Positions 2,123-13,038 of a DNA stretch of 64,000 nucleotides are shown here, one piece after another. Positions within the stretch are counted from its first letter, which is position 1; each line of letters starts with the position of its first letter. Below the pieces are notes generated by a model. That model ran no database searches. It saw only the letters and a list, made by a program, of their open reading frames with translations, and had not been told where the DNA came from. Where the stretch lies: assembly GCA_963711395.1 (NCBI GenBank), contig CAVQEA010000001.1, positions 25,213 through 89,212 on the forward strand. The letters run 5' to 3'. The DNA is from an uncultured delta proteobacterium (GTDB lineage Bacteria; Desulfobacterota; Binatia; JACPRU01). The position numbers and the translations under genes were made by a program.

Positions 2123-2187
2123 GGAATGTCGCCTCTCCTGCCTGTGGGGTCGAACCGAGACCCATCTAGCCATCAGTCAGACTTGAG

Positions 2188-2202
2188 GCACATACCGTGC
2201 CA
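2188..2202 (-). promoter_or_regulatory. sigma54 -24/-12 promoter upstream of the porin gene
   Basis: Minus strand TGGCAC-GGTAT-GTGC, with GG and GC 10 bp apart, about 65 bp upstream of the porin ATG. Confidence 0.75.
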
Positions 2203-2305: not shown

Positions 2306-4552
2306 TCAGTTCGGAGCGCCGGCCGCGAAGAGCGCCGACAGGAAGTCTTCCGCCCATGTCAGCGCGGTCGTACGGGACACGGCGGCGAGCAGCTTTTCAT
2401 GCCGCATCCGTCGCTCGTCGAGCCCCATGCGCAGCGCGCGATCGAGGTCTCGCGCGAGGCCGTCCACGTGCCACGGGTTCGTCAGTAGGGCGTCGGTGAG
2501 CTCGACGGCGGCCCCCGCGAAACGCGAGAGCACCAGGACTCCCGGATCGTCCGGGTCCTGGGCCGCCACCCACTCCTTGGCGACCAGGTTCATGCCGTCG
2601 CGCAGCGGCGTGACGTAGCCGACGGCGGAAGCGCGGTAGAGCTGCGAGAGCTGGTTGCGCCCGTATGACCGATAGAGGTAGCGAATCGGCACCCAGTCGC
2701 CCTCGCCGAACTCGCCGTTCGTGCGCCCGACGATGGTCTCGACGCGCTGGCGCTGCTCTGCGTAGGCCGGCACGTCGCTACGCGAAGGCACCGAGATCTG
2801 CACGAGCGAAACCTTTCGGCGCCACTCCGGGTAGAGCTCCAGGAGACGCGCGAATCCTTCGAGACGCTCTGGAATTCCCTTCGTGTAGTCGAGGCGATCT
2901 ACACCGAGGACGAGCCGACTCGGCGCGATCGAGCGCATCAAGCTCGCCACCTCTTCCGCCGTCGAGGGCGCTGCAGGCTCCTGGAAGCCCTCCGGGATGA
3001 TCCCGATCGGGAAGGCGCCGATGCGCGTGCGCCGGCCGCGGTACTCGATCGCGTCGTCACCCACTAACGTACCCGGGAGCGCCGCAATGCAGCGGCGGAA
3101 GTTCTCCACGTGACCCGGCGTGTGGAAGCCGACCAGGTCGAGCGCGAGCAGTGCTCCGAGTACCTCCTCCGCCCACGGCAGGATGAAGAAGACGTCTGGG
3201 GACGGGAAACGGCACGTGTAGAAAGAGCCCGATCGGCCCCCTGTGCCCGCGCTCGCGCAGTCGCTGGCCGAGCAGGAAGAGATGATAGTCGTGGACCCAC
3301 ACCGCGTCCTCGGGACCGACCAGACGAGCAGCCACGCTCGCAAAGACCTCGTTGGCGTCGCGGTATGCCTGCCAATCCTGGTCCGACAGCTGTACGCGGT
3401 TCGGGAAGGAATGCAGTAGCGGCCACAGAGCGCCGTTGCAGAGCCCGTTGTAGTAATGACCGTGGCACTCGTCGGTGAAGTCGATCCATGCCCGCGCCGG
3501 CTCGGCGGAGTCGTCGAGACCGAAGGACGTCGCATCGACGTCCGGCCGTGTGCGGCCACTCCACCCGAGCCAAACGCCTCGGCGGAGCCCAGAGCGCCGG
3601 CTCGAGCGCGGATACCAAGCCGCCGACGTTGCGCTTGCGCGCGTCGAACGAATCCGCCGCGGAGCGCAGCTCGGGCAAGCGGTTGGAGACGACCAGCAGA
3701 CGGTAGGCATAGGGCGAGCCGAGATCGATCCGGGGAATCTCGATACGCCGTGGTGGCGCGAACGGCTCGGTGTCGGTCGCGCTGCGGCGAACGGCCAGCA
3801 TCCAGCGCAGGAGTCTCTCCGTTTCCTCGGGCGCGTCGAGTCGCCAGCGCGCAGCGGTCGCACGACCGGCTTCGTTGCTGACTAGCACCGACTCGTCCTC
3901 GGCGGCGAGGCTGCGGAACATGTCCTCGTCGGTGACGTCGTCGCCCAGTGCCAGAAGGCGCGCGCCCGCGCCTGCGCGCTCGCGAAGCCATGCGATGGCG
4001 CTCCCTTTTCGCAAGCGCGCCGGCCGCACTTCCAGACACCTCCGACGCGCGCACGTCGACGAAGCGCGAGTGGCCCGTGAGCCAGGCGGCGACGCGATTC
4101 TCGACCTCGACCACGGCGCCCTCGCGGCGCTCGGGCGCGATGGCGCGGAAGTGGAACGCGACCGACCACGTCTTGCGTTCGACGCGGGCGCCGGGATGGC
4201 GAGTGGCCAGGGCGCGCAGCTCCTCCGCCAGATCTTCCACCTCATCCTGCGAGGCCTCGGCCCACGGTTGCCAGGCACCCGCGTCGCGGCGCCATCCGCC
4301 GTGCTCCGCGACGAGCAGCACATCGGCGGCGCCCGCGAAAAACCCCTCGAGCACTTCCCGAGGGCGGCCGCTCATCACGGCCACCGTCATGCCCGGCGAG
4401 GCCGCGAGATCCGCGATCAGTGCGACGAGCTCGGGGCCGGGTCGCGCGCTCTCCGGCGTCGACGTGAACGGGATCAGTGTGCCGTCCAGGTCGACGAGGA
4501 TGGCGAGCGGCGTCCAGCGCGCGAGCGCCAGCCAGTGATCGTACTCGGACAC
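2306..4552 (-). CDS. otsB-otsA: Trehalose-6-phosphate phosphatase (HAD)-trehalose-6-phosphate synthase fusion; several frameshifts
   Basis: N-terminal HAD motifs DLDGTL, AEHG, KG and [13 protein letters not shown] motifs [47 protein letters not shown] and [12 protein letters not shown], spread over three reading frames. Confidence 0.85.
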
Positions 4553-4570: not shown

Positions 4571-5028
4571 CTATCCGCAGATGCGGGAAGGAACGGAATA
4601 CCGCGTCAGTTGGCGCTCTCCGCCGGCTTGAAGGTCAGCACAGCCCCGTTCCGGGGGATCGACTTCTTCGGCACGGCGGCGCGCGTGACCGCGAAGCTCA
4701 AGATCTCGCTGAGTCGCCCAACTGCCGACGACCTGGTCGACGGGCAACAGCGCGATGAGGGCGTCAGCGCGCTGCCCGATGCCGGCGCTCAACTCTACGA
4801 TCCGGGCTGCACGCTCTGCGAGTTGATCGTCGAGCACGACTTCGATCTTCATCCTCGGGGAAGTCGGGGACGTATTCGGCCCCGCGATAGAGCTGCCGTG
4901 CGCCCTTCTCCTGGACCGCAGCGTTTCACTTCGGAAACGGTTATCTCCTCGAGCCCCAGCGTGACGAGGGCGTCCTTCACCGCTCCCAGTGTTCCGGGTC
5001 GAATGATTGCCTCGAGCTTCTTCATCAT
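4571..5028 (-). CDS. P-II-like (GlnB fold) protein, copy 2; two apparent indels, 3' end uncertain
   Basis: MMKKLEAIIRPGTLGAVKDALVTLGLEEITVSEVKR, then in shifted frames QLYRGAEYVPDF and RMKIEVVLDDQ. RBS GGAGGA. Confidence 0.7.
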
Positions 5029-5435
5029 CGTCCTCCTTCGACGGTGGTGTCGCCGCCGTCGGTGACCGCACCGTCGGACAAGTCTTTCCGTGCGAGCTTG
5101 GCGCGCCGCAGCCAGAGCTGCTCGACGAGGCCCGCATACAGCGCGGCAGCGAACAGTAACCACCAACCGCCCAACAGGATGGAGCTCGGAAGAGCCGGCA
5201 GAATGCCCGGCCACATGGCCAGAGCCCACACCATAGCGCTGATCGGCGCGAGTATGACCAGTAGATCGTGGCGAGTGTGTTGCGCGCGCTCGAATGCACA
5301 CTGCGCAACCAGGAAGGCGCGCAGCGCCCGCTGCGGGGCGTGATCGCTACACGGCAGGCTCGCGCCGGCCGATTGGCGGACCAGGCCGGAGTCGCGTGCC
5401 GGCGCCGCATAGACGCGACGAGGTAGATTCAGCAT
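5025..5435 (-). CDS. Hypothetical membrane protein (two TM helices)
   Basis: ORF 5025..5453, likely start MLNLP at 5435. Two hydrophobic segments. The stop overlaps the P-II copy 2 start codons. Confidence 0.6.
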   Translation of the reverse strand: MLNLPRRVYAAPARDSGLVRQSAGASLPCSDHAPQRALRAFLVAQCAFERAQHTRHDLLVILAPISAMVWALAMWPGILPALPSSILLGGWWLLFAAALYAGLVEQLWLRRAKLARKDLSDGAVTDGGDTTVEGGR

Positions 5436-5466
5436 GTGCCCGACGCCACCCATCGCGAGGACGGCA

Positions 5467-5481
5467 GCACGTACCGTGCCA
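5467..5481 (-). promoter_or_regulatory. sigma54 -24/-12 promoter
   Basis: Minus strand TGGCAC-GGTAC-GTGC. Confidence 0.75.
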
Positions 5482-5610: not shown

Positions 5611-5913
5611 TCACAGATGCTCGGCGGCGGCGAGAACGAACATCATCCAACCGTCGGCGCATCCCGTCTTGGCCGCGCGCTGAATGGTCGAGATCACCGA
5701 CGGGACGAGCTCGTCGTTCACGACGAGCTCGAGCTTCACTCTCGGCAGGAATGCGAGTGCATGGGTCTCACCGCCAGGAGATTCGGCACGCGCCGCCTCA
5801 CGTGCAAAGCGCTTGACCTCGCTCACGGCGGCCTCGCGCACGCACATTGCTCCGAGGGCGCGCTTCACTTCCTCGAGCCTGGACGGCTTGATGATCGCCT
5901 CGATTCGTCTCAC
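5611..5913 (-). CDS. P-II-like (GlnB fold) protein, copy 1; degenerate T-loop and B-loop
   Basis: [21 protein letters not shown]...VSEVKRF...[30 protein letters not shown] aligns with GlnB by eye. The start overlaps the kdpC stop (GTGA). Confidence 0.75.
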
Positions 5914-6569
5914 GGACGCGCGATCGGTCTAGTTGCTGGAAGCATTGCTCGCCGGCGGCGCCGAGTGGATCTCGGAGAGGCCGGGGCGGTATTTGGACTC
6001 GCCTCGTCGAGCGCCAGGTTCAGCTCGAGAACGTTGACCCGTGGGTCACCGAGGATTCCGTATTGGCGGCCTTCGACGTGGGCTCGCAGCAGCTCTCGCA
6101 CCTTGTCTTCGGGGAGTTTGCGGGCCTTGGCCACGCGCGCGACCTGGAGCTCGGCCGCCGCCGGGCTGATGTGTGGATCGAGCCCGCTTCCCGAGGTGGT
6201 CACTAGATCCGCGGGGATCTTGGCACCGGGATTCTCGCTGGCCAGCTGCTGCACGGCGTCGCCGACGCGCTTCTGGAGGCCGGCATCATTCGGACCGAGG
6301 TTCGAGCCGCTCGAGGCGCCGGCGTCGTAGCCGTTCGTGCCGGCGGCCGAAGGGCGGGGGTGGAAGTAACCGTCGCCCGCGAAGTTCTGGCCGATCAGCT
6401 CCGATCCGATCACCTGATCGCCGTGGACGATCAGGCTGCCGTTCGCCTGGTGGGGAAAGAGGAGCTGGGCGAGACCCGTCATCGCCAGCGGGTAGAGGAT
6501 GCCGGTGATCACGGTGAGGATCAGAGTCATGAGGATCGCGGGACGGAGCTCGGAAAGCATGTGGGTCAC
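5910..6569 (-). CDS. kdpC: K+-transporting ATPase subunit C
   Basis: [63 protein letters not shown]. Confidence 0.95.
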
Positions 6570-6581
6570 CTCTGCAGGCGC

Positions 6582-8636
6582 TCAAGCCAAATGGAGCGCG
6601 GAGACGATGAGATCGATCGCCTTGATGCCGATGAACGGCACGATGATGCCGCCGACGCCGTAGACGAGCAGGTTCCGCCGCAAGATCGCGGCTGCGCCCA
6701 GCGGACGGAACTTCACGCCGCGCAGCGCGAGCGGGATCAGCGCGATGATGATGAGCGCGTTGAAGATGATCGCCGAGAGGATCGCGCTTCGCGGCGTCGC
6801 GAGGCCCATGATGTTGAGCGCGTTCAGCTCGGGATAGGTGGCGGCGAACATCGCCGGGATGATCGCGAAGTACTTGGCCACGTCGTTGGCGATCGAGAAC
6901 GTGGTGAGCGAGCCGCGCGTGATCAGCAGCTGCTTGCCGATCTCGACGATCTCGATGAGCTTGGTCGGGTTGGAGTCGAGGTCGACCATGTTGCCGGCCT
7001 CTTTGGCGGCGGAGGTGCCGGTGTTCATCGCCACGCCGACGTCGGCCTGGGCGAGCGCGGGCGCGTCGTTGGTGCCGTCGCCGCACATCGCCACCAGCTT
7101 GCCCTTCGCCTGCTCCTCGCGGATCAATGCCAGCTTGTTCTCGGGCGTGGCCTGGGCGAGGAAGTCGTCGACCCCTGACTCGGCAGCGATCGCCGCGGCG
7201 GTGAGCGGGTTGTCGCCGGTGATCATCACCGTGCGGATACCCATCGTCCGGAGCTCTGCGAAGCGCTCCTTGATTCCCCCTTTGACGACGTCCTTGAGGT
7301 GAATGATGCCGAGCAGCTTCTGGTCCTTGGCGACCGCGAGCGGCGTGCCACCCGAGCGGGCGATCCGCTCGGCGATCGTCTTGAGCTCCGGCGGAGGCTG
7401 GAAGGTCCGGCCGTTCTTGCTCTTGGCGAACTCGATGATCGCGTCGACGGCACCCTTGCGGACCTCGGCGCCGTTGAGATTGACGCCGCTCATGCGGCTC
7501 TGCGCCGTGAACGGCACGAAGTGGCCGCCGAGCTCGCGGACGTCGCGTCCACGCAGGCCGTAGCGCTCTTTGGCGAGCACGACGATCGAGCGGCCTTCCG
7601 GCGTCTCGTCCGAGAGCGAAGCGAGCTGCGCGGCGTCGGCGAGATCCTCGTCCTTGACGCCCGGGAGCGGCAGGAGCTCGCTCGCCATGCGGTTGCCGAG
7701 CGTGATCGTGCCGGTCTTGTCGAGGAGCAGCGTGTCCACGTCGCCAGCGGCCTCGACCGCGCGGCCCGACATGGCGAGCACGTTGTACTTCACCAGCCGG
7801 TCCATGCCGGCGATGCCGATGGCCGAAAGCAGACCGCCGATCGTGGTGGGAATCAGCGTGACGAAGAGGGCGATCAGGATCGCGACCGAGATCGCCGACC
7901 CGGCGTAAAGGCCGAACATCTCGATCGACACCGTGACGAACACGAAGATGATCGTCATGCCGACGAGCAGGATCGACAGCGCGATCTCGTTCGGGGTCTT
8001 CTGGCGCTTGGCGCCCTCGACGAGCGCGATCATGCGGTCGAGGAACGTCTCACCCGGATTCGAGGTGATCTTCACCTTGATCCAGTCGGAGAGCACGCGC
8101 GTGCCGCCGGTGACGGCGGAACGGTCGCCGCCGCTTTCCCGGATCACCGGGGCGGATTCGCCCGTGATCGCCGATTCGTCGACCGAGGCGATGCCTTCGA
8201 TCACGTCGCCGTCGCCAGGGATGACCTCGCCCGCTACGACCAGCACGATGTCGTCGCGGCGGAGCTGCGTGGCGGGAACACGTTCGCCGTGCTCGTCGTC
8301 GACCTTGCGCAGGCGCATCGCGACCGTCTCGGTCCGCGTCTTTCGCAGCGTGTCTGCCTGCGCCTTGCCGCGCCCCTCGGCGACCGCCTCGGCGAAGTTG
8401 GCGAACAGCACCGTGAACCACAGCCAGGCGCTGAGCTGGCCGGTGAAGGCCGCGTCGCCCATCGCTCCGCTGAACAGGTCTCGGACGAAGATGACCGTGG
8501 TCGCGGCGGAGACGATCTCGACCACGAACATGACGGGGTTGCGCATCAGTGTCCGCGGATCGAGCTTGTAGAACGAGTCGAGAATCGCTGGACGAAGCAG
8601 CGCTGGATCGAAGATCGAGGACTTGGCTCTGGACAT
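6582..8636 (-). CDS. kdpB: K+-transporting P-type ATPase subunit B
   Basis: [44 protein letters not shown]; intact 684 aa. Confidence 0.98.
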
Positions 8637-8649
8637 GGACGTAGGACCT

Positions 8650-10359
8650 CTAGAGAGTCTTGCCGGCCATCATGAACAGATGGTCGACGATCGGGCCGAG
8701 CGAGAGCGCGGGGAAGAACGTGAGCCCGCCGACGATCAGGATGACGCCGACGAGCAGCGCGACGAACAGCGGCGTGTTGGTCGGAAACGTTCCGCTCGAC
8801 GGCGGCACGAGCTTCTTCTTCACCAGCGAGCCGGCGATGGCGATCGTCGGCACGATCATCAGGAAGCGGCCGAACAGCATCGCTAAACCGATCGTCAGAT
8901 TGTAGAAGACCGTGTTCGCGGAGATGCCCGCAAAGGCGCTGCCGTTGTTGCCGGTGCCGGACGAGTACGCGTAGAGGATCTCGCTGAAGCCGTGCGGCCC
9001 CTTGTTGAGAGGGCCGGCGAGACCGGAAGGCGAGACGCTCGCGAGCGCGGTGAAGCCGAGGATCGAGAACTCGAGGATCAGGATGGCCAAGACGGCCATC
9101 GTCACCTCCTTGGCCTCGATCTTCTTGCCGAGGTATTCCGGCGTGCGGCCCACCATCAGGCCGGCGATGAAGACCGAGAGCACGGCGAAGAGCAGCATGC
9201 CGTAGAGACCGGCGCCCGTGCCGCCGATCACCACCTCGCCGAGCTGGATGTTGAGTAGCGGGATCAAGCCGCCGAGCGGGGTGAAGCTGTCGTGCATGCT
9301 GTTGACGGCGCCGCAGGAGGTGCCGGTGGTCACGGCTGCCCACAAAGCGGACTTGGGGAGACCAAAGCGAACCTCCTTGCCCTCCATGTTGCCGCCCGTG
9401 GGATCGACGCCGAGGCGGGCGAACGCGGGATTGCCCGCCGCTTCGGACCAGTACGCGATGAAGACGCCGGTCAGCAGGATCGCCAGCATCGCGCCAAGAA
9501 GCGCCCAGCCCTGGCGGGTGTCGCGCACCATGACGCCGAAGGTGTAGGTGAGCGCCGCGCTCACTAGCAGGATCGCGAACATCTCGAGATGGTCCGTCAG
9601 CGGCGTGGGGTTCTCGTAGGGATGGGCCGAGTTGGCATTGTAGAAGCCACCGCCGTTGGTGCCGAGCTCCTTGATGATCTCTTGCGACGCGACGGGTCCT
9701 TGACCGATCGTCTGGTCCGCGCCCTCGACCGTCTTGACGGCCGTATAGGCGTTCAGGTTCTGCGGCACTCCCTGCCACACCAACACCGGAGTCAGGAGCA
9801 CGCAGATCGGCAGCAGCACCCAAAGCGTGGAGCGGGTGAGGTCCACCCAGAAGTTGCCGATCGTCTTTCCTTCATGGCGCGCGAAACCGCGCACCAGCGC
9901 GATCGCGAGCGCGATGCCGGTCGCCGCCGACACGAAGTTGTGGAACGCGAGCCCGGCCATCTGCGTGAAGTAGCTCATGGTCGTCTCGGGGACGTACGAC
10001 TGCCAGTTGGTGTTGGTGGTGAAGCTCACCGCCGTGTTGAACGATGAGTCCGCCGAGATCGGCCCGAGCCCCTGCGGATTGAACGGCAGGAGGTGTTGGG
10101 CTCGCTGCATCAGGTAGAGCAACAACAAGCCCGCGACGTTGAAGAGCAGCATTGCGATAGTGTAGGTGGTCCAGTGCTGCTCGACGTCCGGGCGCACGCC
10201 GCTCAGCCGGTAGATCAGCCGCTCGACTGGGGCGAGCACGGGGTCAAGGAAGGTGCGCTCGCGCGCGAACACCCGTGCCATGTACAGCCCGAGCGGCTTC
10301 ACGCAGGCGAGCACGAGGCCGAAGAGTACCAATATCTGTAAAATGCCATTCGCAGTCAT
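8650..10359 (-). CDS. kdpA: K+-transporting ATPase subunit A
   Basis: [57 protein letters not shown]; intact 569 aa. Confidence 0.98.
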
Positions 10360-10371
10360 GAGAATCGGCCT

Positions 10372-10461
10372 CTAGAATTTCTCGGGATTCAGAAGGACGT
10401 AGAAGAGGTAGACGAGTATCCCGACGGCAACGGTGCCGCCGAGCCAGAATTCCAAGGTCAT
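10372..10461 (-). CDS. kdpF: KdpF peptide (29 aa)
   Basis: Hand translation MTLEFWLGGTVAVGILVYLFYVLLNPEKF*, directly upstream of kdpA, with the typical YLxYxLLxPEKF ending. Confidence 0.92.
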   Translation of the reverse strand: MTLEFWLGGTVAVGILVYLFYVLLNPEKF

Positions 10462-10465
10462 GGCG

Positions 10466-10549
10466 TCACAACCTTTCGCAGCCTTCGACGTAGGCAATTG
10501 CCCCGGCGAAGAAACCTACGACGACGACCAGAAAAAGCAGGTCCATCAT
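10466..10549 (-). CDS. 27-aa hydrophobic micro-peptide upstream of kdpF
   Basis: MMDLLFLVVVVGFFAGAIAYVEGCERL*, with a GGAGAG RBS, ending 4 bp before kdpF. Confidence 0.8.
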   Translation of the reverse strand: MMDLLFLVVVVGFFAGAIAYVEGCERL

Positions 10550-10592
10550 TCCGGAGTCTCTCCGTTTTGAAGTCGTTCGACTGATCAGGGCA

Positions 10593-10607
10593 GCACCTTC
10601 CATGCCA
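10593..10607 (-). promoter_or_regulatory. sigma54 -24/-12 promoter of the kdp operon
   Basis: Minus strand TGGCAT-GGAAG-GTGC, about 45 bp upstream of the 27-aa peptide start. Confidence 0.7.
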
Positions 10608-10912
10608 CTGCGATCAGTTCCGTTTTCGCTGCGCTTTTCGCAATGCGAGCTTCTCGCACTGTGCAAGCCGAAGGAATCGATGCCTTCACAATGCAATGAA
10701 CGAGAGATTTCGTTCGATCTGAAACCTGGTCGCGCCTTCTAAGCGGGTTCGGGGCTACTCGCAAGCTAGCCGAGCTTGCAGAGCGAGCAGCCGAGCGCTG
10801 AGCGGCTCTCGGAAGAGGTTAGGAAGCACGCGGAGGAGGTCGACGCCTCCGCCATGACGTAAATCGATGCCGCTCATTCGGGGCGCCTGCGAGGTAAAGC
10901 ATCGGCTCCTCC

Positions 10913-11008
10913 TCAGATCTTTTCGCACGCTGAGACGAAGGCGAGACAGATACCCATACTCACGAGTCCGAGGATGAGCATCCCCGGTAGCCAAGTGACC
11001 AAGTTCAT
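10913..11008 (-). CDS. 31-aa hydrophobic micro-peptide
   Basis: Hand translation MNLVTWLPGMLILGLVSMGICLAFVSACEKI*, with a strong GGAAAGGAG RBS. It ends in CEKI, like the CERL of the 27-aa peptide. Confidence 0.72.
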   Translation of the reverse strand: MNLVTWLPGMLILGLVSMGICLAFVSACEKI

Positions 11009-11048
11009 CCGTAGCGCTCCTTTCCGTTACCTTCGGCGATACGGTAAG

Positions 11049-11063
11049 GCACGGAGCATGCCA
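11049..11063 (-). promoter_or_regulatory. sigma54 -24/-12 promoter upstream of the 31-aa peptide
   Basis: Minus strand TGGCAT-GCTCC-GTGC, about 40 bp upstream of the ATG at 11008. Confidence 0.65.
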
Positions 11064-11446
11064 GCCATGCGGAAGGGCGTTCGAAGCACTTCACGATGCA
11101 TGCTCGGTAAAAACACGGGATCGCCGCTCGCGCGCACTGTGGCCCTTTTGTCGGGGCGGTCCGAGGATGTGATCACAATGAAAGAAGGAGCAAGTGCATC
11201 TTGAACGGGAAGGCTCGGGTGCCGACCGACGCGCGCAGAGCTACTTCCAACGGGGCGGTGATCAACGAAGGAGCACTGATGCCTCTTTCGGCAGGGTCTG
11301 TGGACGCAGTGCAAAACACGTCGCGCAGCTCATCGATGAGTCTCCCGCTTGCGCAATTGCATTGCGAACTGGTGTCTTTCGTTCAGTATGCAATGCGAGC
11401 GGAGGTCGGACGCGAGAAAGTGGCGACATCGCGGTGTGATGCGAAG

Positions 11447-11461
11447 CGGCACGAAATCTGC
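11447..11461 (+). promoter_or_regulatory. sigma54 -24/-12 promoter upstream of the response regulator
   Basis: CGGCAC-GAAAT-CTGC, about 57 bp upstream of the start at 11518. Confidence 0.55.
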
Positions 11462-11517
11462 TCGCGATCCTTTTGGCAGATGTCGATTGAACCGGGACCA
11501 GTTGCGAGGTAGCGAGC

Positions 11518-12855
11518 GTGGCGTCCGTTCTCATCGTGGACGACGACAAGAGCATTCGCAGTACCCTCGGGACCTACATTCGTAGCCTTGGACACGAAGC
11601 CGAAGCGGCCGGCGATGCTGCAGACGCACTAGGTGCGCTTGCTCGGGAAAAGTTCGACATCGTCCTCTCGGACGTACGCATGGGCGGGCTCGATGGAATC
11701 GAGCTGTTGCGGGAGATTCGCGCCGACTGGCCGGAAACGGTGGTCATTCTGATGACCGCGTATGCGACCGTTGCACAGGCGGTCGAGGCGATCCACGCGG
11801 GCGCATACGACTACTTGGTCAAGCCGTTTTCCCCTGAACAGGTCGCTCTTCGGCTCTCACGTGCGGTCGAGCTTCTCTCGCTTCGCAACGAAAACCGAGC
11901 GCTTCGCGGCGCTCTCGATCGTCCCCTGCTGCTTCAGTCGGTGAGCCCGAGGACGAGGAGCGCGATCGACAAGGCGCGCGACGCCGCAGCTTCGGAGGCC
12001 ACGCTGCTACTCACCGGCGAAAGCGGTACCGGCAAGAGCGCCCTCGCCGCGGCAGTGCACGGCTGGAGTCCGCGCCGCGACGGCCCTTTCGTCGCCATCT
12101 CTTGTGCGTCGCTGAACGACCGTATTCTGGAGAGCGCGCTCTTTGGACATGTCAAGGGCGCGTTCCCGAGCGCGTGGAAGAACACCCTCGGCCGGCTCGA
12201 GGCTGCCGCGGGTGGAACCATCTTCCTGGACGACGTCGCCGAGCTTCCGTCCACGCTTCAAGGGCAACTGCTGCGATTCGTCGAGAATCGCCGCTTCGAA
12301 AGGGTCGGAGGGACGCACACCATCGAGGTCGACGCGCGCATCATCGCGGCCACTAGCCGCAATCTCGAAGTGGAGGTCGCGGCCGGCCGTCTTCGCGAGG
12401 ACTTGTTCCATCGTCTGAACGTGCTGAGGATCGACCTCCCGCCGCTGCGGGACCGCCTCGAGGATCTGCCGGCTCTCGCTCGTTCGATTCTTCAAGGGCT
12501 CACCGCGCGATACTCTCGACCCCTCCTGGAGCTCGACTCGGAGGCGGCAGCGGCGCTGGCGCGATACCGCTGGCCTGGAAATGTACGCGAACTACTGAAC
12601 GTGCTGGAGCATGCTGCCGTGGTCAGTGGCGGCAACGTGGTCCGTGTCGATCAGTTGCCCGACCGGTTGCAAGCGCCCGCACCCGCCCCGACATTGGCCG
12701 GGGCCTCCGAGAAGAGCCTCTCTCTCGAAGAGATGGAGCAGCAACAGATCAGATTTGCGCTTGCGGATTCCTCGACGCTCGAGGAAGCGGCCGCGCGCCT
12801 CGGAATCAGTGCGACGACACTTTGGCGCAAGCGGAAGCGCTACAGCCTCGAGTAA
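11518..12855 (+). CDS. NtrC/AlgB-like response regulator (REC-AAA+-HTH) with degenerate GAFTGA and Walker B motifs
   Basis: REC domain (VDDD, SDVRMG, KPF), Walker A GESGTGKS, ESALFGHVKGAFPSA, FLDDV, REDLFHRLNV, WPGNVREL and a Fis-type HTH. Confidence 0.9.
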   Translation: MASVLIVDDDKSIRSTLGTYIRSLGHEAEAAGDAADALGALAREKFDIVLSDVRMGGLDGIELLREIRADWPETVVILMTAYATVAQAVEAIHAGAYDYLVKPFSPEQVALRLSRAVELLSLRNENRALRGALDRPLLLQSVSPRTRSAIDKARDAAASEATLLLTGESGTGKSALAAAVHGWSPRRDGPFVAISCASLNDRILESALFGHVKGAFPSAWKNTLGRLEAAAGGTIFLDDVAELPSTLQGQLLRFVENRRFERVGGTHTIEVDARIIAATSRNLEVEVAAGRLREDLFHRLNVLRIDLPPLRDRLEDLPALARSILQGLTARYSRPLLELDSEAAAALARYRWPGNVRELLNVLEHAAVVSGGNVVRVDQLPDRLQAPAPAPTLAGASEKSLSLEEMEQQQIRFALADSSTLEEAAARLGISATTLWRKRKRYSLE

Positions 12856-12891
12856 GTTTGGGCGCTCGCCCGGGGTCCTTCAACGTTGGGG

Positions 12892-13038
12892 ATGAACACA
12901 ATCGGGCCATTGATGACATTAGGCCCGCTCTTGGTGCTCTTACATTACGGGGTCATCCGGCGAGAAGAGCGCTACATGGGCGCCACGTTCGGTGAGGCGT
13001 ACGGCCACTATCGTGCCCAGGTGCGGAGGTGGCTTTGA
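12892..13038 (+). pseudogene. C-terminal remnant of an isoprenylcysteine carboxyl methyltransferase (ICMT/PEMT)-family gene
   Basis: Hand translation ...LLVLLHYGVIRREERYMGATFGEAYGHYRAQVRRWL*, the typical family C-terminus. No N-terminal half upstream. Confidence 0.6.

Follow-up and report, generated by a model that had tools for sequence, protein, structure and literature searches.

The high-affinity K+ pump KdpFABC is a textbook transporter, the structure and mechanism of which rest on the complex of Escherichia coli, with KdpF, a peptide of 29 amino acids (aa), as a stabilising subunit. Single-pass micropeptides with a short conserved tail, such as sarcolipin, phospholamban and FXYD, bind the transmembrane (TM) domain of P-type ATPases in eukaryotes, and very short open reading frames (ORFs) such as mgtL and mgtP are located in the 5' leader of cation P-type ATPase operons. 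For Clostridium acetobutylicum, Treuner-Lange et al. in 1997 reportedly described a pair of small hydrophobic ORFs upstream of kdpA, orfZ and orfY (kdpZ and kdpY), one of them presumably the KdpF equivalent. In enterobacteria, the micropeptides MgtS, MgtU and MgtR act on the Mg2+ P-type ATPases MgtA and MgtB and on MgtC, controlling stability (PMC12648545). Here, a stretch of 64,000 nucleotides (nt) of contig CAVQEA010000001.1 from an uncultured bacterium of the class Binatia, in the following called the window, is analysed with respect to P2 and P3, two micropeptide ORFs upstream of kdpF. P2 is representative of a family that is widespread but essentially unannotated, with its members predicted to be the first gene of kdp operons in many bacterial phyla. 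The explanation favoured overall, which we consider probable on the basis of comparative analysis, is that P2 is a translated single-helix membrane peptide and a small component of the Kdp pump. The kdp operon with its micropeptide ORFs is organised as follows:

10913-11008, minus strand: P3, 31 aa, single-TM, MNLVTWLPGMLILGLVSMGICLAFVSACEKI, an ORF with a Shine-Dalgarno (SD) sequence; leader micropeptide of the type of a second kdp operon (kdp2), very probably an orphan in the window
10466-10549, minus strand: P2, 27 aa, single-TM, MMDLLFLVVVVGFFAGAIAYVEGCERL, an ORF with an SD sequence that heads the kdp operon; family conserved upstream of kdpF
10372-10461, minus strand: kdpF, 29 aa, MTLEFWLGGTVAVGILVYLFYVLLNPEKF, matching PF09604 and TIGR02115
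8650-10359, minus strand: kdpA, matching PF03814 (E 6e-248)
6582-8636, minus strand: kdpB, matching the Pfam E1-E2 ATPase and HAD families
5910-6569, minus strand: kdpC, matching PF02669

The initial annotation of this DNA had placed three micro-ORFs ahead of kdpA on the minus strand, KdpF with 29 aa, P2 with 27 aa and P3 with 31 aa, which proved exact to the coordinate, and had ascribed clear ribosome-binding sites to P2 and P3, which can be specified as the SD sequences GGAGAG and AAGGAG, respectively, each located 8 nt before the ATG. The kdpF ORF scores 47.8 bits against PF09604 (cut-off 21.2; E 1.2e-12) and 36.2 bits against TIGR02115 (cut-off 26.85; E 3.9e-9), and its ATG starts 4 nt after the P2 stop; a spacer of approximately 360 nt separates P3 from P2. 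With KdpF, the peptide shares a single hydrophobic helix of less than 32 aa with charges only at its ends, a gene position at the 5' end of the operon and translational coupling to the following cistron, and the KdpF tail RPE[RK]F goes along with the same suggested topology, N-terminus out and C-terminus in (N-out/C-in). On the other hand, no sequence relationship is found between the KdpF motif …Y-L-x-x-A-L-x-x-P-E-x-F and the peptide motif M-x-D…FFA…Y-V-x-x-C-[DE]-[RK]-L, and the peptide is always additional to KdpF, never its replacement; with no score against KdpF models, P2 and P3 as KdpF paralogues by sequence are ruled out. Equally, P2, P3 and the peptide of one relative had no match in Pfam (P2 and P3: E up to 0.1) or in NCBIfam release 20 (P2 and P3: E up to 1), and a profile search of the PDB retrieved no chain meaningfully resembling the peptide.

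With MgtS, MgtU and MgtR, the peptides have in common a length of about 30 aa, a single TM helix and co-regulation with a cation P-type ATPase, but no sequence similarity; moreover, the enterobacterial micropeptides are not a conserved first cistron and their function has been shown by experiment, whereas that of P2 and P3 is proposed. Sarcolipin, phospholamban and FXYD are eukaryotic and unrelated in sequence, with no sign of homology; the comparison is a functional analogy only, and a binding of the present peptide to KdpB or KdpA is hypothetical. The leader peptides mgtL and mgtP resemble P2 in that their ORFs are very short and belong to the 5' leader of an operon for a cation P-type ATPase, but have no conserved hydrophobic helix and act through codons and RNA structures, of which none was found here by an Rfam scan and by folding of the spacer.

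The P2 family can be recognised by the above-mentioned motif located a few bases upstream of kdpF, with D3, F13-F14-A15, Y20-V21 and C24-[DE]25-[RK]26-L27 as the conserved residues. A P2-type ORF of 26-27 codons is found upstream of kdpF in every readable relative, as exemplified by:

G006: P2-type peptide MDILFLVVVIGFFAGAIAYVEGCERL
G014: P2-type peptide MLDLIFIAATCAFFALALWYVRGCEKL
G038: P2-type peptide MWDLISILSGIAFFAIAIAYVRGCDNL
G035: P2-type peptide.ADLVLIGVTVGFFAAAWLYTLSCDRL
G023: P2-type peptide MDLVSLGLVAAFFALSWGFVVLCERL
G034: P2-type peptide MDALYVALSVLLFGLSWALIELCDRL
G005: P2-type peptide, partial at a contig end
G002:C16: P2-type peptide, Cys-less variant ending GVDRL

In a sample of 201 genomes of the class, 76 of which have KdpA, a P2-type profile model built from nine sequences, the window P2 among them, gave approximately 65 full-length matches at E < 1e-4; P2 itself scores 57.8 bits (E 1e-14) with all motif residues present. 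Upon cross-reference of coordinates in these 201 genomes, a P2-type match is located 130-220 nt upstream of nearly every N-terminally complete kdpA of type 1. Seven kdpA starts were without a profile match, two of them at contig ends and five with divergent peptides such as MELICVGLAVAFAVATAGLIALCDRLQGDGR and MLLLGMILLGLAAFAALLGFIVFCEWV, in which a C-[DE] close to the C-terminus is kept (C-[DE]-x-[LV]) and of which some are slightly extended. As a side aspect, the kdp operons of the closest family relatives are split into several frames, in G002:C25 (L014, L018 and others), where the P2 ORF is frameshifted (MMMDILFLIVADRLLRRGNRLRRRL), as well as in G006:C11 (L007, L011), reflecting either decay or errors in the assembly of metagenome-assembled genomes.

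Extending the analysis across phyla, the degenerate DNA pattern FFA-x4-[YF][VI]-x2-C-[DE]-x-L-stop was scanned over GTDB species genomes, which identified at least 120 loci. Among the matches listed, 115 of 121 have a KdpF-like ORF and/or a match to KdpA downstream; the others represent locus edges or approximately three chance matches. The matches listed cover at least 10 phyla, with Alphaproteobacteria, Myxococcota, Acidobacteriota, Verrucomicrobiota, Chloroflexota and Cyanobacteria among the phyla and groups represented. Named carriers are Methylobacterium, Mesorhizobium, Rhizobium, Bosea, Devosia, Azospirillum, Inquilinus, Roseomonas and Cereibacter; Myxococcus, Anaeromyxobacter, Binataceae, Solibacter, Vicinamibacteria, Aminicenantes and Pedosphaera; and Anaerolineae, Thermomicrobiales, Oculatellaceae, Armatimonadota, Gemmatimonadales and Paceibacterota. 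Among the true GTDB pattern matches listed, no match from Clostridium occurs. In PLSDB, 122 plasmid or chromid records harbour a P2-type ORF. In plasmid pRle248d of Rhizobium leguminosarum 248, RefSeq annotates KdpF and KdpA, and nothing over the peptide, and the copy of Azospirillum lipoferum 4B is annotated as "hypothetical protein" or "conserved exported protein of unknown function"; the few database copies of the family exist as hypothetical proteins. In the literature searched, no second small ORF upstream of kdpF is described, and reviews on small proteins (PMC12648545, PMC10730256) mention KdpF only. Within the literature and databases searched, the P2/P3 family is undescribed and would join the micropeptide partners of transporters.

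Coding signatures were assessed in 143 unique P2-type ORFs. An ATG start is present in 129 of them, a length of 26 or 27 codons in 138 and an SD-like sequence in 118; with respect to individual residues, D3 is found in 135, FFA in approximately 133-136, Y at position -8 in 124, V at position -7 in 115 and the terminal L in 135 ORFs. The summed column entropy amounts to 27.1, 19.3 and 37.7 for the first, second and third codon position, respectively, as expected for a region that codes for a hydrophobic peptide. As the ratio of nonsynonymous to synonymous substitution rates (dN/dS) was saturated and uninformative over all pairs, close pairs alone were used, and the ratio of nonsynonymous to synonymous polymorphism (pN/pS) in 229 such pairs was 0.24 over all codons and 0.45 over the codons left free by the search pattern. 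That the ORFs are untranslated, and that a regulatory element of DNA or RNA which is free of stop codons by chance accounts for their conservation, is hardly credible to us. The ORFs are indeed too short for most gene callers, but start, SD sequence, stop and length are kept across phyla while the nucleotides diverge, the variation is largest at the third codon position and the low pN/pS applies. Equally, an Rfam scan of positions 10000-11800 with E up to 1 retrieved nothing, including no c-di-AMP riboswitch or other known leader RNA, and the RNA fold of the spacer between P3 and P2 is no better than that of shuffled sequences (z -0.8). Furthermore, the finds at kdpA starts, being based on position, are free of ascertainment bias and agree with the samples based on the pattern and on hidden Markov models (HMMs); a conserved non-coding element is very unlikely. 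With high confidence, the P2-type ORFs can be considered a real coding family linked to kdp.

A second peptide type is represented by P3. This family consists of peptides of 31 aa with the pattern M-[ND]-L-x-x-W-[LY]-P…L-G…F-x-x-[AG]-C-[ED]-[KR]-[IV], to which the window P3 conforms, scoring 75.6 bits (E 2e-20) against model A4, of which P3 itself is one of the four building sequences. In a search of 1.84 billion representative proteins (E up to 1e-3), P3 was 61-74% identical to 31-aa proteins in 99 clusters, the members of which are nearly all exactly 31 aa long or have the 31 aa terminating an over-extended gene call. One P3-type cluster also contains P0007 (434 aa), which was discarded as an unrelated, CorA-like protein. 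P3 aligns with the P2 family over the whole length with an insertion of five residues, by which P2 and P3 can be seen as paralogous types, as had been proposed initially.

The P3-type profile detected 15 copies in 13 of the 201 class genomes, and 14 of these copies are located approximately 220 nt upstream of a kdpA of type 2, the sole exception being the copy in the window. In G087 and G095, two kdp operons are arranged back to back (divergent), one with the order P2-type peptide, KdpF and KdpA, the other with the order P3-type peptide, KdpF2 and KdpA2. The second operon starts with the peptide MNLAVWYPAMFVLGVVAMGICLLFLDACERI, succeeded by KdpF2 MLILTAAVSAFLFVYLFTALIRPEWF, with RPEWF as the KdpF2 end, and by KdpA2 of approximately 605 aa; against PF03814, KdpA2 scores approximately 600 bits and type-1 KdpA approximately 820 bits. 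The type-2 operon of G194 and another ten are laid out alike, MNLVVWLPAMFFLGLVTMALSYAFITACEKI being an example of their peptides. Consequently, peptide type follows pump type, the P2 type occurring with KdpF/KdpA and the P3 type with KdpF2/KdpA2, and genomes with two operons keep both. Conservation upstream of the kdp operons of relatives, on which the initial annotation had made its proposal depend, is observed for the P2 type and the P3 type alike. Of its suggestion that P2 and P3 are alternative accessory subunits or regulators of KdpFABC, the accessory or regulatory role at Kdp is still the best inference, while the notion of two alternative partners of one KdpFABC had to be given up, as the P2 and P3 types elsewhere belong to different types of operon.

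Loci of the second kdp type are L061 (G087:C9), L062 (G095:C7), L063 (G194:C437) and L196-L207, and two or three kdp copies occur in several genomes of the class. In L204 (G102:C4:917410-918300, minus strand), three micropeptide ORFs stand in a row before KdpA2, namely a P2-like ORF with the Cys replaced by Ser (MLDMLFVGITVAIFLIGVVYVRLSERL), a P3-type ORF (MDVAIWLPGTFLLGLISLGLCFAFLVACEKI) and KdpF2; this tandem indicates that coexistence of P2-like and P3-type ORFs at one pump is possible.

In the window, the upstream copy P3 is very probably a kdp2-type peptide that has been orphaned, the telling feature being located immediately downstream:

10882-10902, minus strand: kdpF2 start remnant MLYLAGA, with its ATG 10 nt after the P3 stop and the SD sequence GGAGGAG overlapping the P3 stop; aligns with KdpF2 starts

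The remnant aligns with KdpF2 starts such as MVYLTAA, MLILTAA and MIYLTAV (G194, G087, G095 and others). In the nucleotide alignment with G194, G087 and G095, conservation covers promoter motif, P3 coding region, stop and SD sequence TGAGGAGG as well as the first seven codons of kdpF2, whereupon similarity ends. From the other side, the homology between the window and G006 upstream of P2 stops near 10730, by which the P3 unit appears joined to a normal kdp1 control region approximately 180 nt after the P3 stop. Searching 10541-11520 by tblastn with the proteins of four kdp2 neighbourhoods for remnants of KdpA2, KdpB2 and KdpC2 gave noise only, and the assembly of the window genome contains a single kdpA. 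The closest relatives, G006 and G002, with a nearly identical kdpFABC, do not possess P3. The simplest history is a deletion of the rest of kdpF2 together with kdpA2, kdpB2 and kdpC2: P3 would normally head a P3 - KdpF2 - KdpA2B2C2 operon, which in the window would have been deleted after approximately codon 7 of kdpF2, so that P3, still intact, would be left upstream of the P2-kdpFABC unit together with the enhancer-like site, the sigma54 promoter and the SD sequence belonging to it. It counts against a loss that the window genome is 78.8% complete, so that a kdp2 operon could sit elsewhere.

Alternatively, P3 might not be a relic, but have been retained or recruited, with its own promoter, as a second functional peptide for the KdpFABC of the window. 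This we regard as doubtful. In favour of this reading, which is that of the initial annotation, P3 has kept intact its ORF, SD sequence and sigma54 motif as well as an enhancer-like word in common with the P2 promoter, while kdpF2 is gone, and the tandem in G102:C4 combines a P2-like and a P3-type ORF in one operon; a single deletion, however, creates the same picture without selection, as 31 codons are a small target for decay, and both the tie of 14 of 15 P3-type copies to KdpF2/KdpA2 and the lack of P3 next to the near-identical kdpFABC of G006 and G002 argue against a function at this pump.

With regard to transcription, the 64-kb window contains four matches to TGGCAY-N5-KTGCY, all on the minus strand, compared to 0.22 expected, and none of the shuffled sequences reached four. 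The sigma54-type promoters that had been proposed ahead of both P2 and P3 are borne out, with 3' ends of the motifs 43 nt upstream of the P2 start and 40 nt upstream of the P3 start and with a gene for an NtrC-type activator nearby:

11518-12855, plus strand: gene for an NtrC-type sigma54-dependent response regulator, divergent from P3, matching PF00072, PF00158, PF25601 and PF02954
11169-11183, minus strand: candidate enhancer (upstream activating sequence) TTTCATTGTGATCAC, approximately 106-120 nt upstream of the P3 promoter
11048-11063, minus strand: sigma54-type promoter TGGCATGCTCCGTGCC ahead of P3, found by pattern scan; aligns with the motif of G087 and G095
10670-10700, minus strand: candidate enhancer consisting of TTCATTGCATTGTGAAGG and the palindrome GAAGGCATCGATTCCTTC ahead of the P2 promoter, conserved between the window and G006
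10592-10607, minus strand: sigma54-type promoter TGGCATGGAAGGTGCT ahead of P2-kdpFABC, found by pattern scan; kept in G006

Both TGGCATGCTCCGTGCC and TGGCATGGAAGGTGCT possess correctly spaced -24 GG and -12 GC elements (TGGCAC-N5-TTGCW). The motif ahead of the P3-type ORFs of G087 and G095 reads TGGCACGCTTTCTGCG, and TGGCACGAAGCCTGC is found at the position of the P2 promoter in G006. The regulator combines a receiver, an AAA+ sigma54-interaction and a Fis-type helix-turn-helix domain, and rpoN is present, as judged by its DNA-binding domain at G000:C7. Of the word CATTGTGA, the window has only two copies, which precede the two promoters by 86 and approximately 117 nt and one of which belongs to the candidate enhancer at 10670-10700; the word is also found ahead of P2 in G006 and G002 and is a candidate binding site of the activator; the word GCAATGC, also considered, is not enriched in the window (11 occurrences versus 9 expected), which leaves CATTGTGA the better candidate. 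No intrinsic terminator was found between P3 and P2, so that the P3 transcript probably reads into kdpFABC. Genes for NtrC-type sigma54 activators also adjoin the kdp operons in L067, L111, L212, L102, L097 and L060, which belong to Binatia-like genomes, Anaeromyxobacter and Aminicenantes. In the literature searched, no paper joins kdpFABC with sigma54 enhancer-binding proteins.

An exact TGGCAY-N5-NTGC motif within 250 nt upstream of the peptide was found in 16 of 38 loci of the class versus 7 of 102 loci of other taxa, and most alphaproteobacterial loci of the P2-type peptide have no sigma54 motif. As the peptide occurs with sigma54 promoters in the class of the window and without them in Alphaproteobacteria, it follows the pump and not one regulatory system. 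This observation bears on the alternative that the peptide is a feedback regulator, which binds a KdpD-like sensor kinase or another membrane protein, as MgrB acts on PhoQ. Small membrane peptides of regulated operons often act back on the sensor of the operon (PMC12648545, PMC10730256), mycobacterial KdpF has been reported to act on KdpD (PMC10730256), and a KdpD-type gene is located approximately 6 kb beyond the start of the window on the same strand. Regulatory set-ups differ widely, however, with the sigma54/NtrC-type in the class and mostly no sigma54 motif in the alphaproteobacterial loci, kdpF-kdpA alone being the constant neighbour, and the pairing with the KdpF/KdpA type favours a partner in the pump over a kinase partner, so that feedback on a sensor seems decidedly improbable.

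The mechanism that we favour can be outlined as follows. P2, as the first cistron, would be transcribed together with kdpFABC from the sigma54 promoter, which the adjacent NtrC-type regulator probably activates, and would be translationally coupled to kdpF, with the P2 stop 4 nt before the kdpF start. An acidic N-terminus combined with the tail [RKH]-x-C-[DE]-[RK]-L suggests, under the positive-inside rule, an insertion in the N-out/C-in orientation; the peptide would thus sit beside KdpF with the C-[DE]-[RK]-L tail at the cytoplasmic face and the Cys at the cytoplasmic interface, and might act as a fifth subunit of the Kdp-ATPase, as an assembly factor or as a modulator of activity. What the sequences show directly are the ORFs with their coding signatures, promoter motifs, conservation and link to kdp, whereas translation, membrane insertion, association with the pump and activation by the neighbouring regulator are all steps that we infer. 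A protein working at the pump is indicated by the conserved helix with conserved residues at both ends, by the constant co-transcription and coupling with kdpF, by the peptide type tracking the type of KdpF/KdpA and by the independence from the regulatory system.

As the main rival, the short ORF might be a cis-acting leader, the translation of which controls downstream kdp expression through coupling to kdpF, protection from Rho or a K+-sensitive pause of the ribosome at the conserved C-terminal codons, with the peptide itself having no task. In support, the peptide ORF without exception opens the operon, at 40-220 nt from the promoter and with tight coupling to kdpF, its last four codons are the most conserved, as in arrest peptides, and mgtL-type leader ORFs control another cation P-type ATPase. 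In Caulobacter, approximately 100 nt before kdpF have been treated as a structured 5' untranslated region (UTR) and Rho-dependent attenuation in the operon has been proposed (PMC8552747), which also favours a leader function. On the other hand, the whole peptide is a conserved TM-like helix of fixed length, in which D3 and FFA are far from the stop and needless for stalling or coupling, and a chain of 27 residues is still within the exit tunnel at termination, so that its hydrophobicity matters only after release. Equally, two sequence types that co-diversify with two pump types speak for a protein partner, and a pN/pS of 0.24 applies across the entire ORF. Weighing these arguments, we consider a mere leader function improbable.

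Several observations weigh against a role of the peptide at the pump. Its position as first cistron right behind the promoter would fit a leader ORF as well. Solved KdpFABC structures and in-vitro work concern E. coli, which to our knowledge has no such ORF, so that the peptide is not a universal requirement. A conserved partner Cys could not be discerned, the near-invariant Cys of the peptide itself is replaced in a few copies (GVDRL in G002:C16, RLSERL in G102:C4), and the samples based on the pattern and on HMMs are biased toward conserved copies by ascertainment. A disulfide to a pump subunit as a general mechanism has been rejected, since KdpC and KdpF of the window are devoid of Cys and the Cys positions of KdpA vary among relatives, and it is further disfavoured by the predicted N-out/C-in topology, which puts the Cys into the reducing cytoplasm. 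Equally, a CaaX-like reading of C-E-R-L was set aside, as the middle residues are charged and not aliphatic and no linked prenylation machinery is present. On balance, the scales tip slightly towards the peptide being a pump-associated membrane component, as suggested by its sequence features and genetic context. The broader view that many bacterial Kdp pumps are encoded by five genes, with a 26-31-residue C-[DE]-[RK]-[LI] peptide as a type-specific membrane partner, two types for two pump types, which tunes or stabilises the complex in analogy to sarcolipin and phospholamban, might hold with about even chance.

In soil, plant-associated and environmental bacteria, kdp operons thus seem to start with an additional conserved cistron, which can be approached in tractable carriers such as Cereibacter sphaeroides, Azospirillum brasilense, Rhizobium leguminosarum, Mesorhizobium and Myxococcus. 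Should the peptide indeed belong to the pump, current descriptions of most Kdp systems outside the enterobacteria would be incomplete with regard to subunit composition, assembly or regulation, and the family would have been overlooked because E. coli is not known to have the ORF and gene callers skip ORFs of less than 90 nt. Stretches considered as kdp "5' UTR" may be coding, and the family is ready for inclusion into annotation resources. Two peptide types matched to two pump types provide a natural comparison of specificity. A second, smaller interest is the sigma54/NtrC-type control of kdp in the class of the window.

The surroundings of the operon contain additional features. A gene for a P-II-like protein of 100 aa (5611-5913, minus strand; PF00543, E 4e-12) has a GTG start that shares bases with the stop codon of kdpC (GTGA), so that it seems to be translationally coupled and to close the kdp operon; G006 also has a P-II gene near its kdp operon (L007). 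Approximately 6.3 kb before the start of the window, on the strand of kdp, a KdpD N-terminal domain (PF02702) is found at G000:C1:18286-18920 (minus strand), with the match spread over three reading frames, indicating frameshifts (a pseudogene) or assembly errors. Directly 3' of the regulator gene, an ORF of 50 aa (12886-13038, plus strand; MGMNTIGPLMTLGPLLVLLHYGVIRREERYMGATFGEAYGHYRAQVRRWL) has no Pfam match at E up to 0.01; we take it to resemble the C-terminal end of the isoprenylcysteine-carboxyl/phospholipid methyltransferase family, and it may be a gene fragment. Further sigma54-type motifs are TGGCACGGTACGTGCT (5466-5481, minus strand), ahead of a membrane-protein ORF of 142 aa (5025-5453) that is followed by a fused trehalose-phosphate phosphatase/synthase gene (2306-4552), and TGGCACGGTATGTGCC (2187-2202, minus strand), ahead of a BBP2-type porin gene (890-2173), an arrangement that suggests a sigma54-dependent K+/osmotic-stress regulon around kdp.

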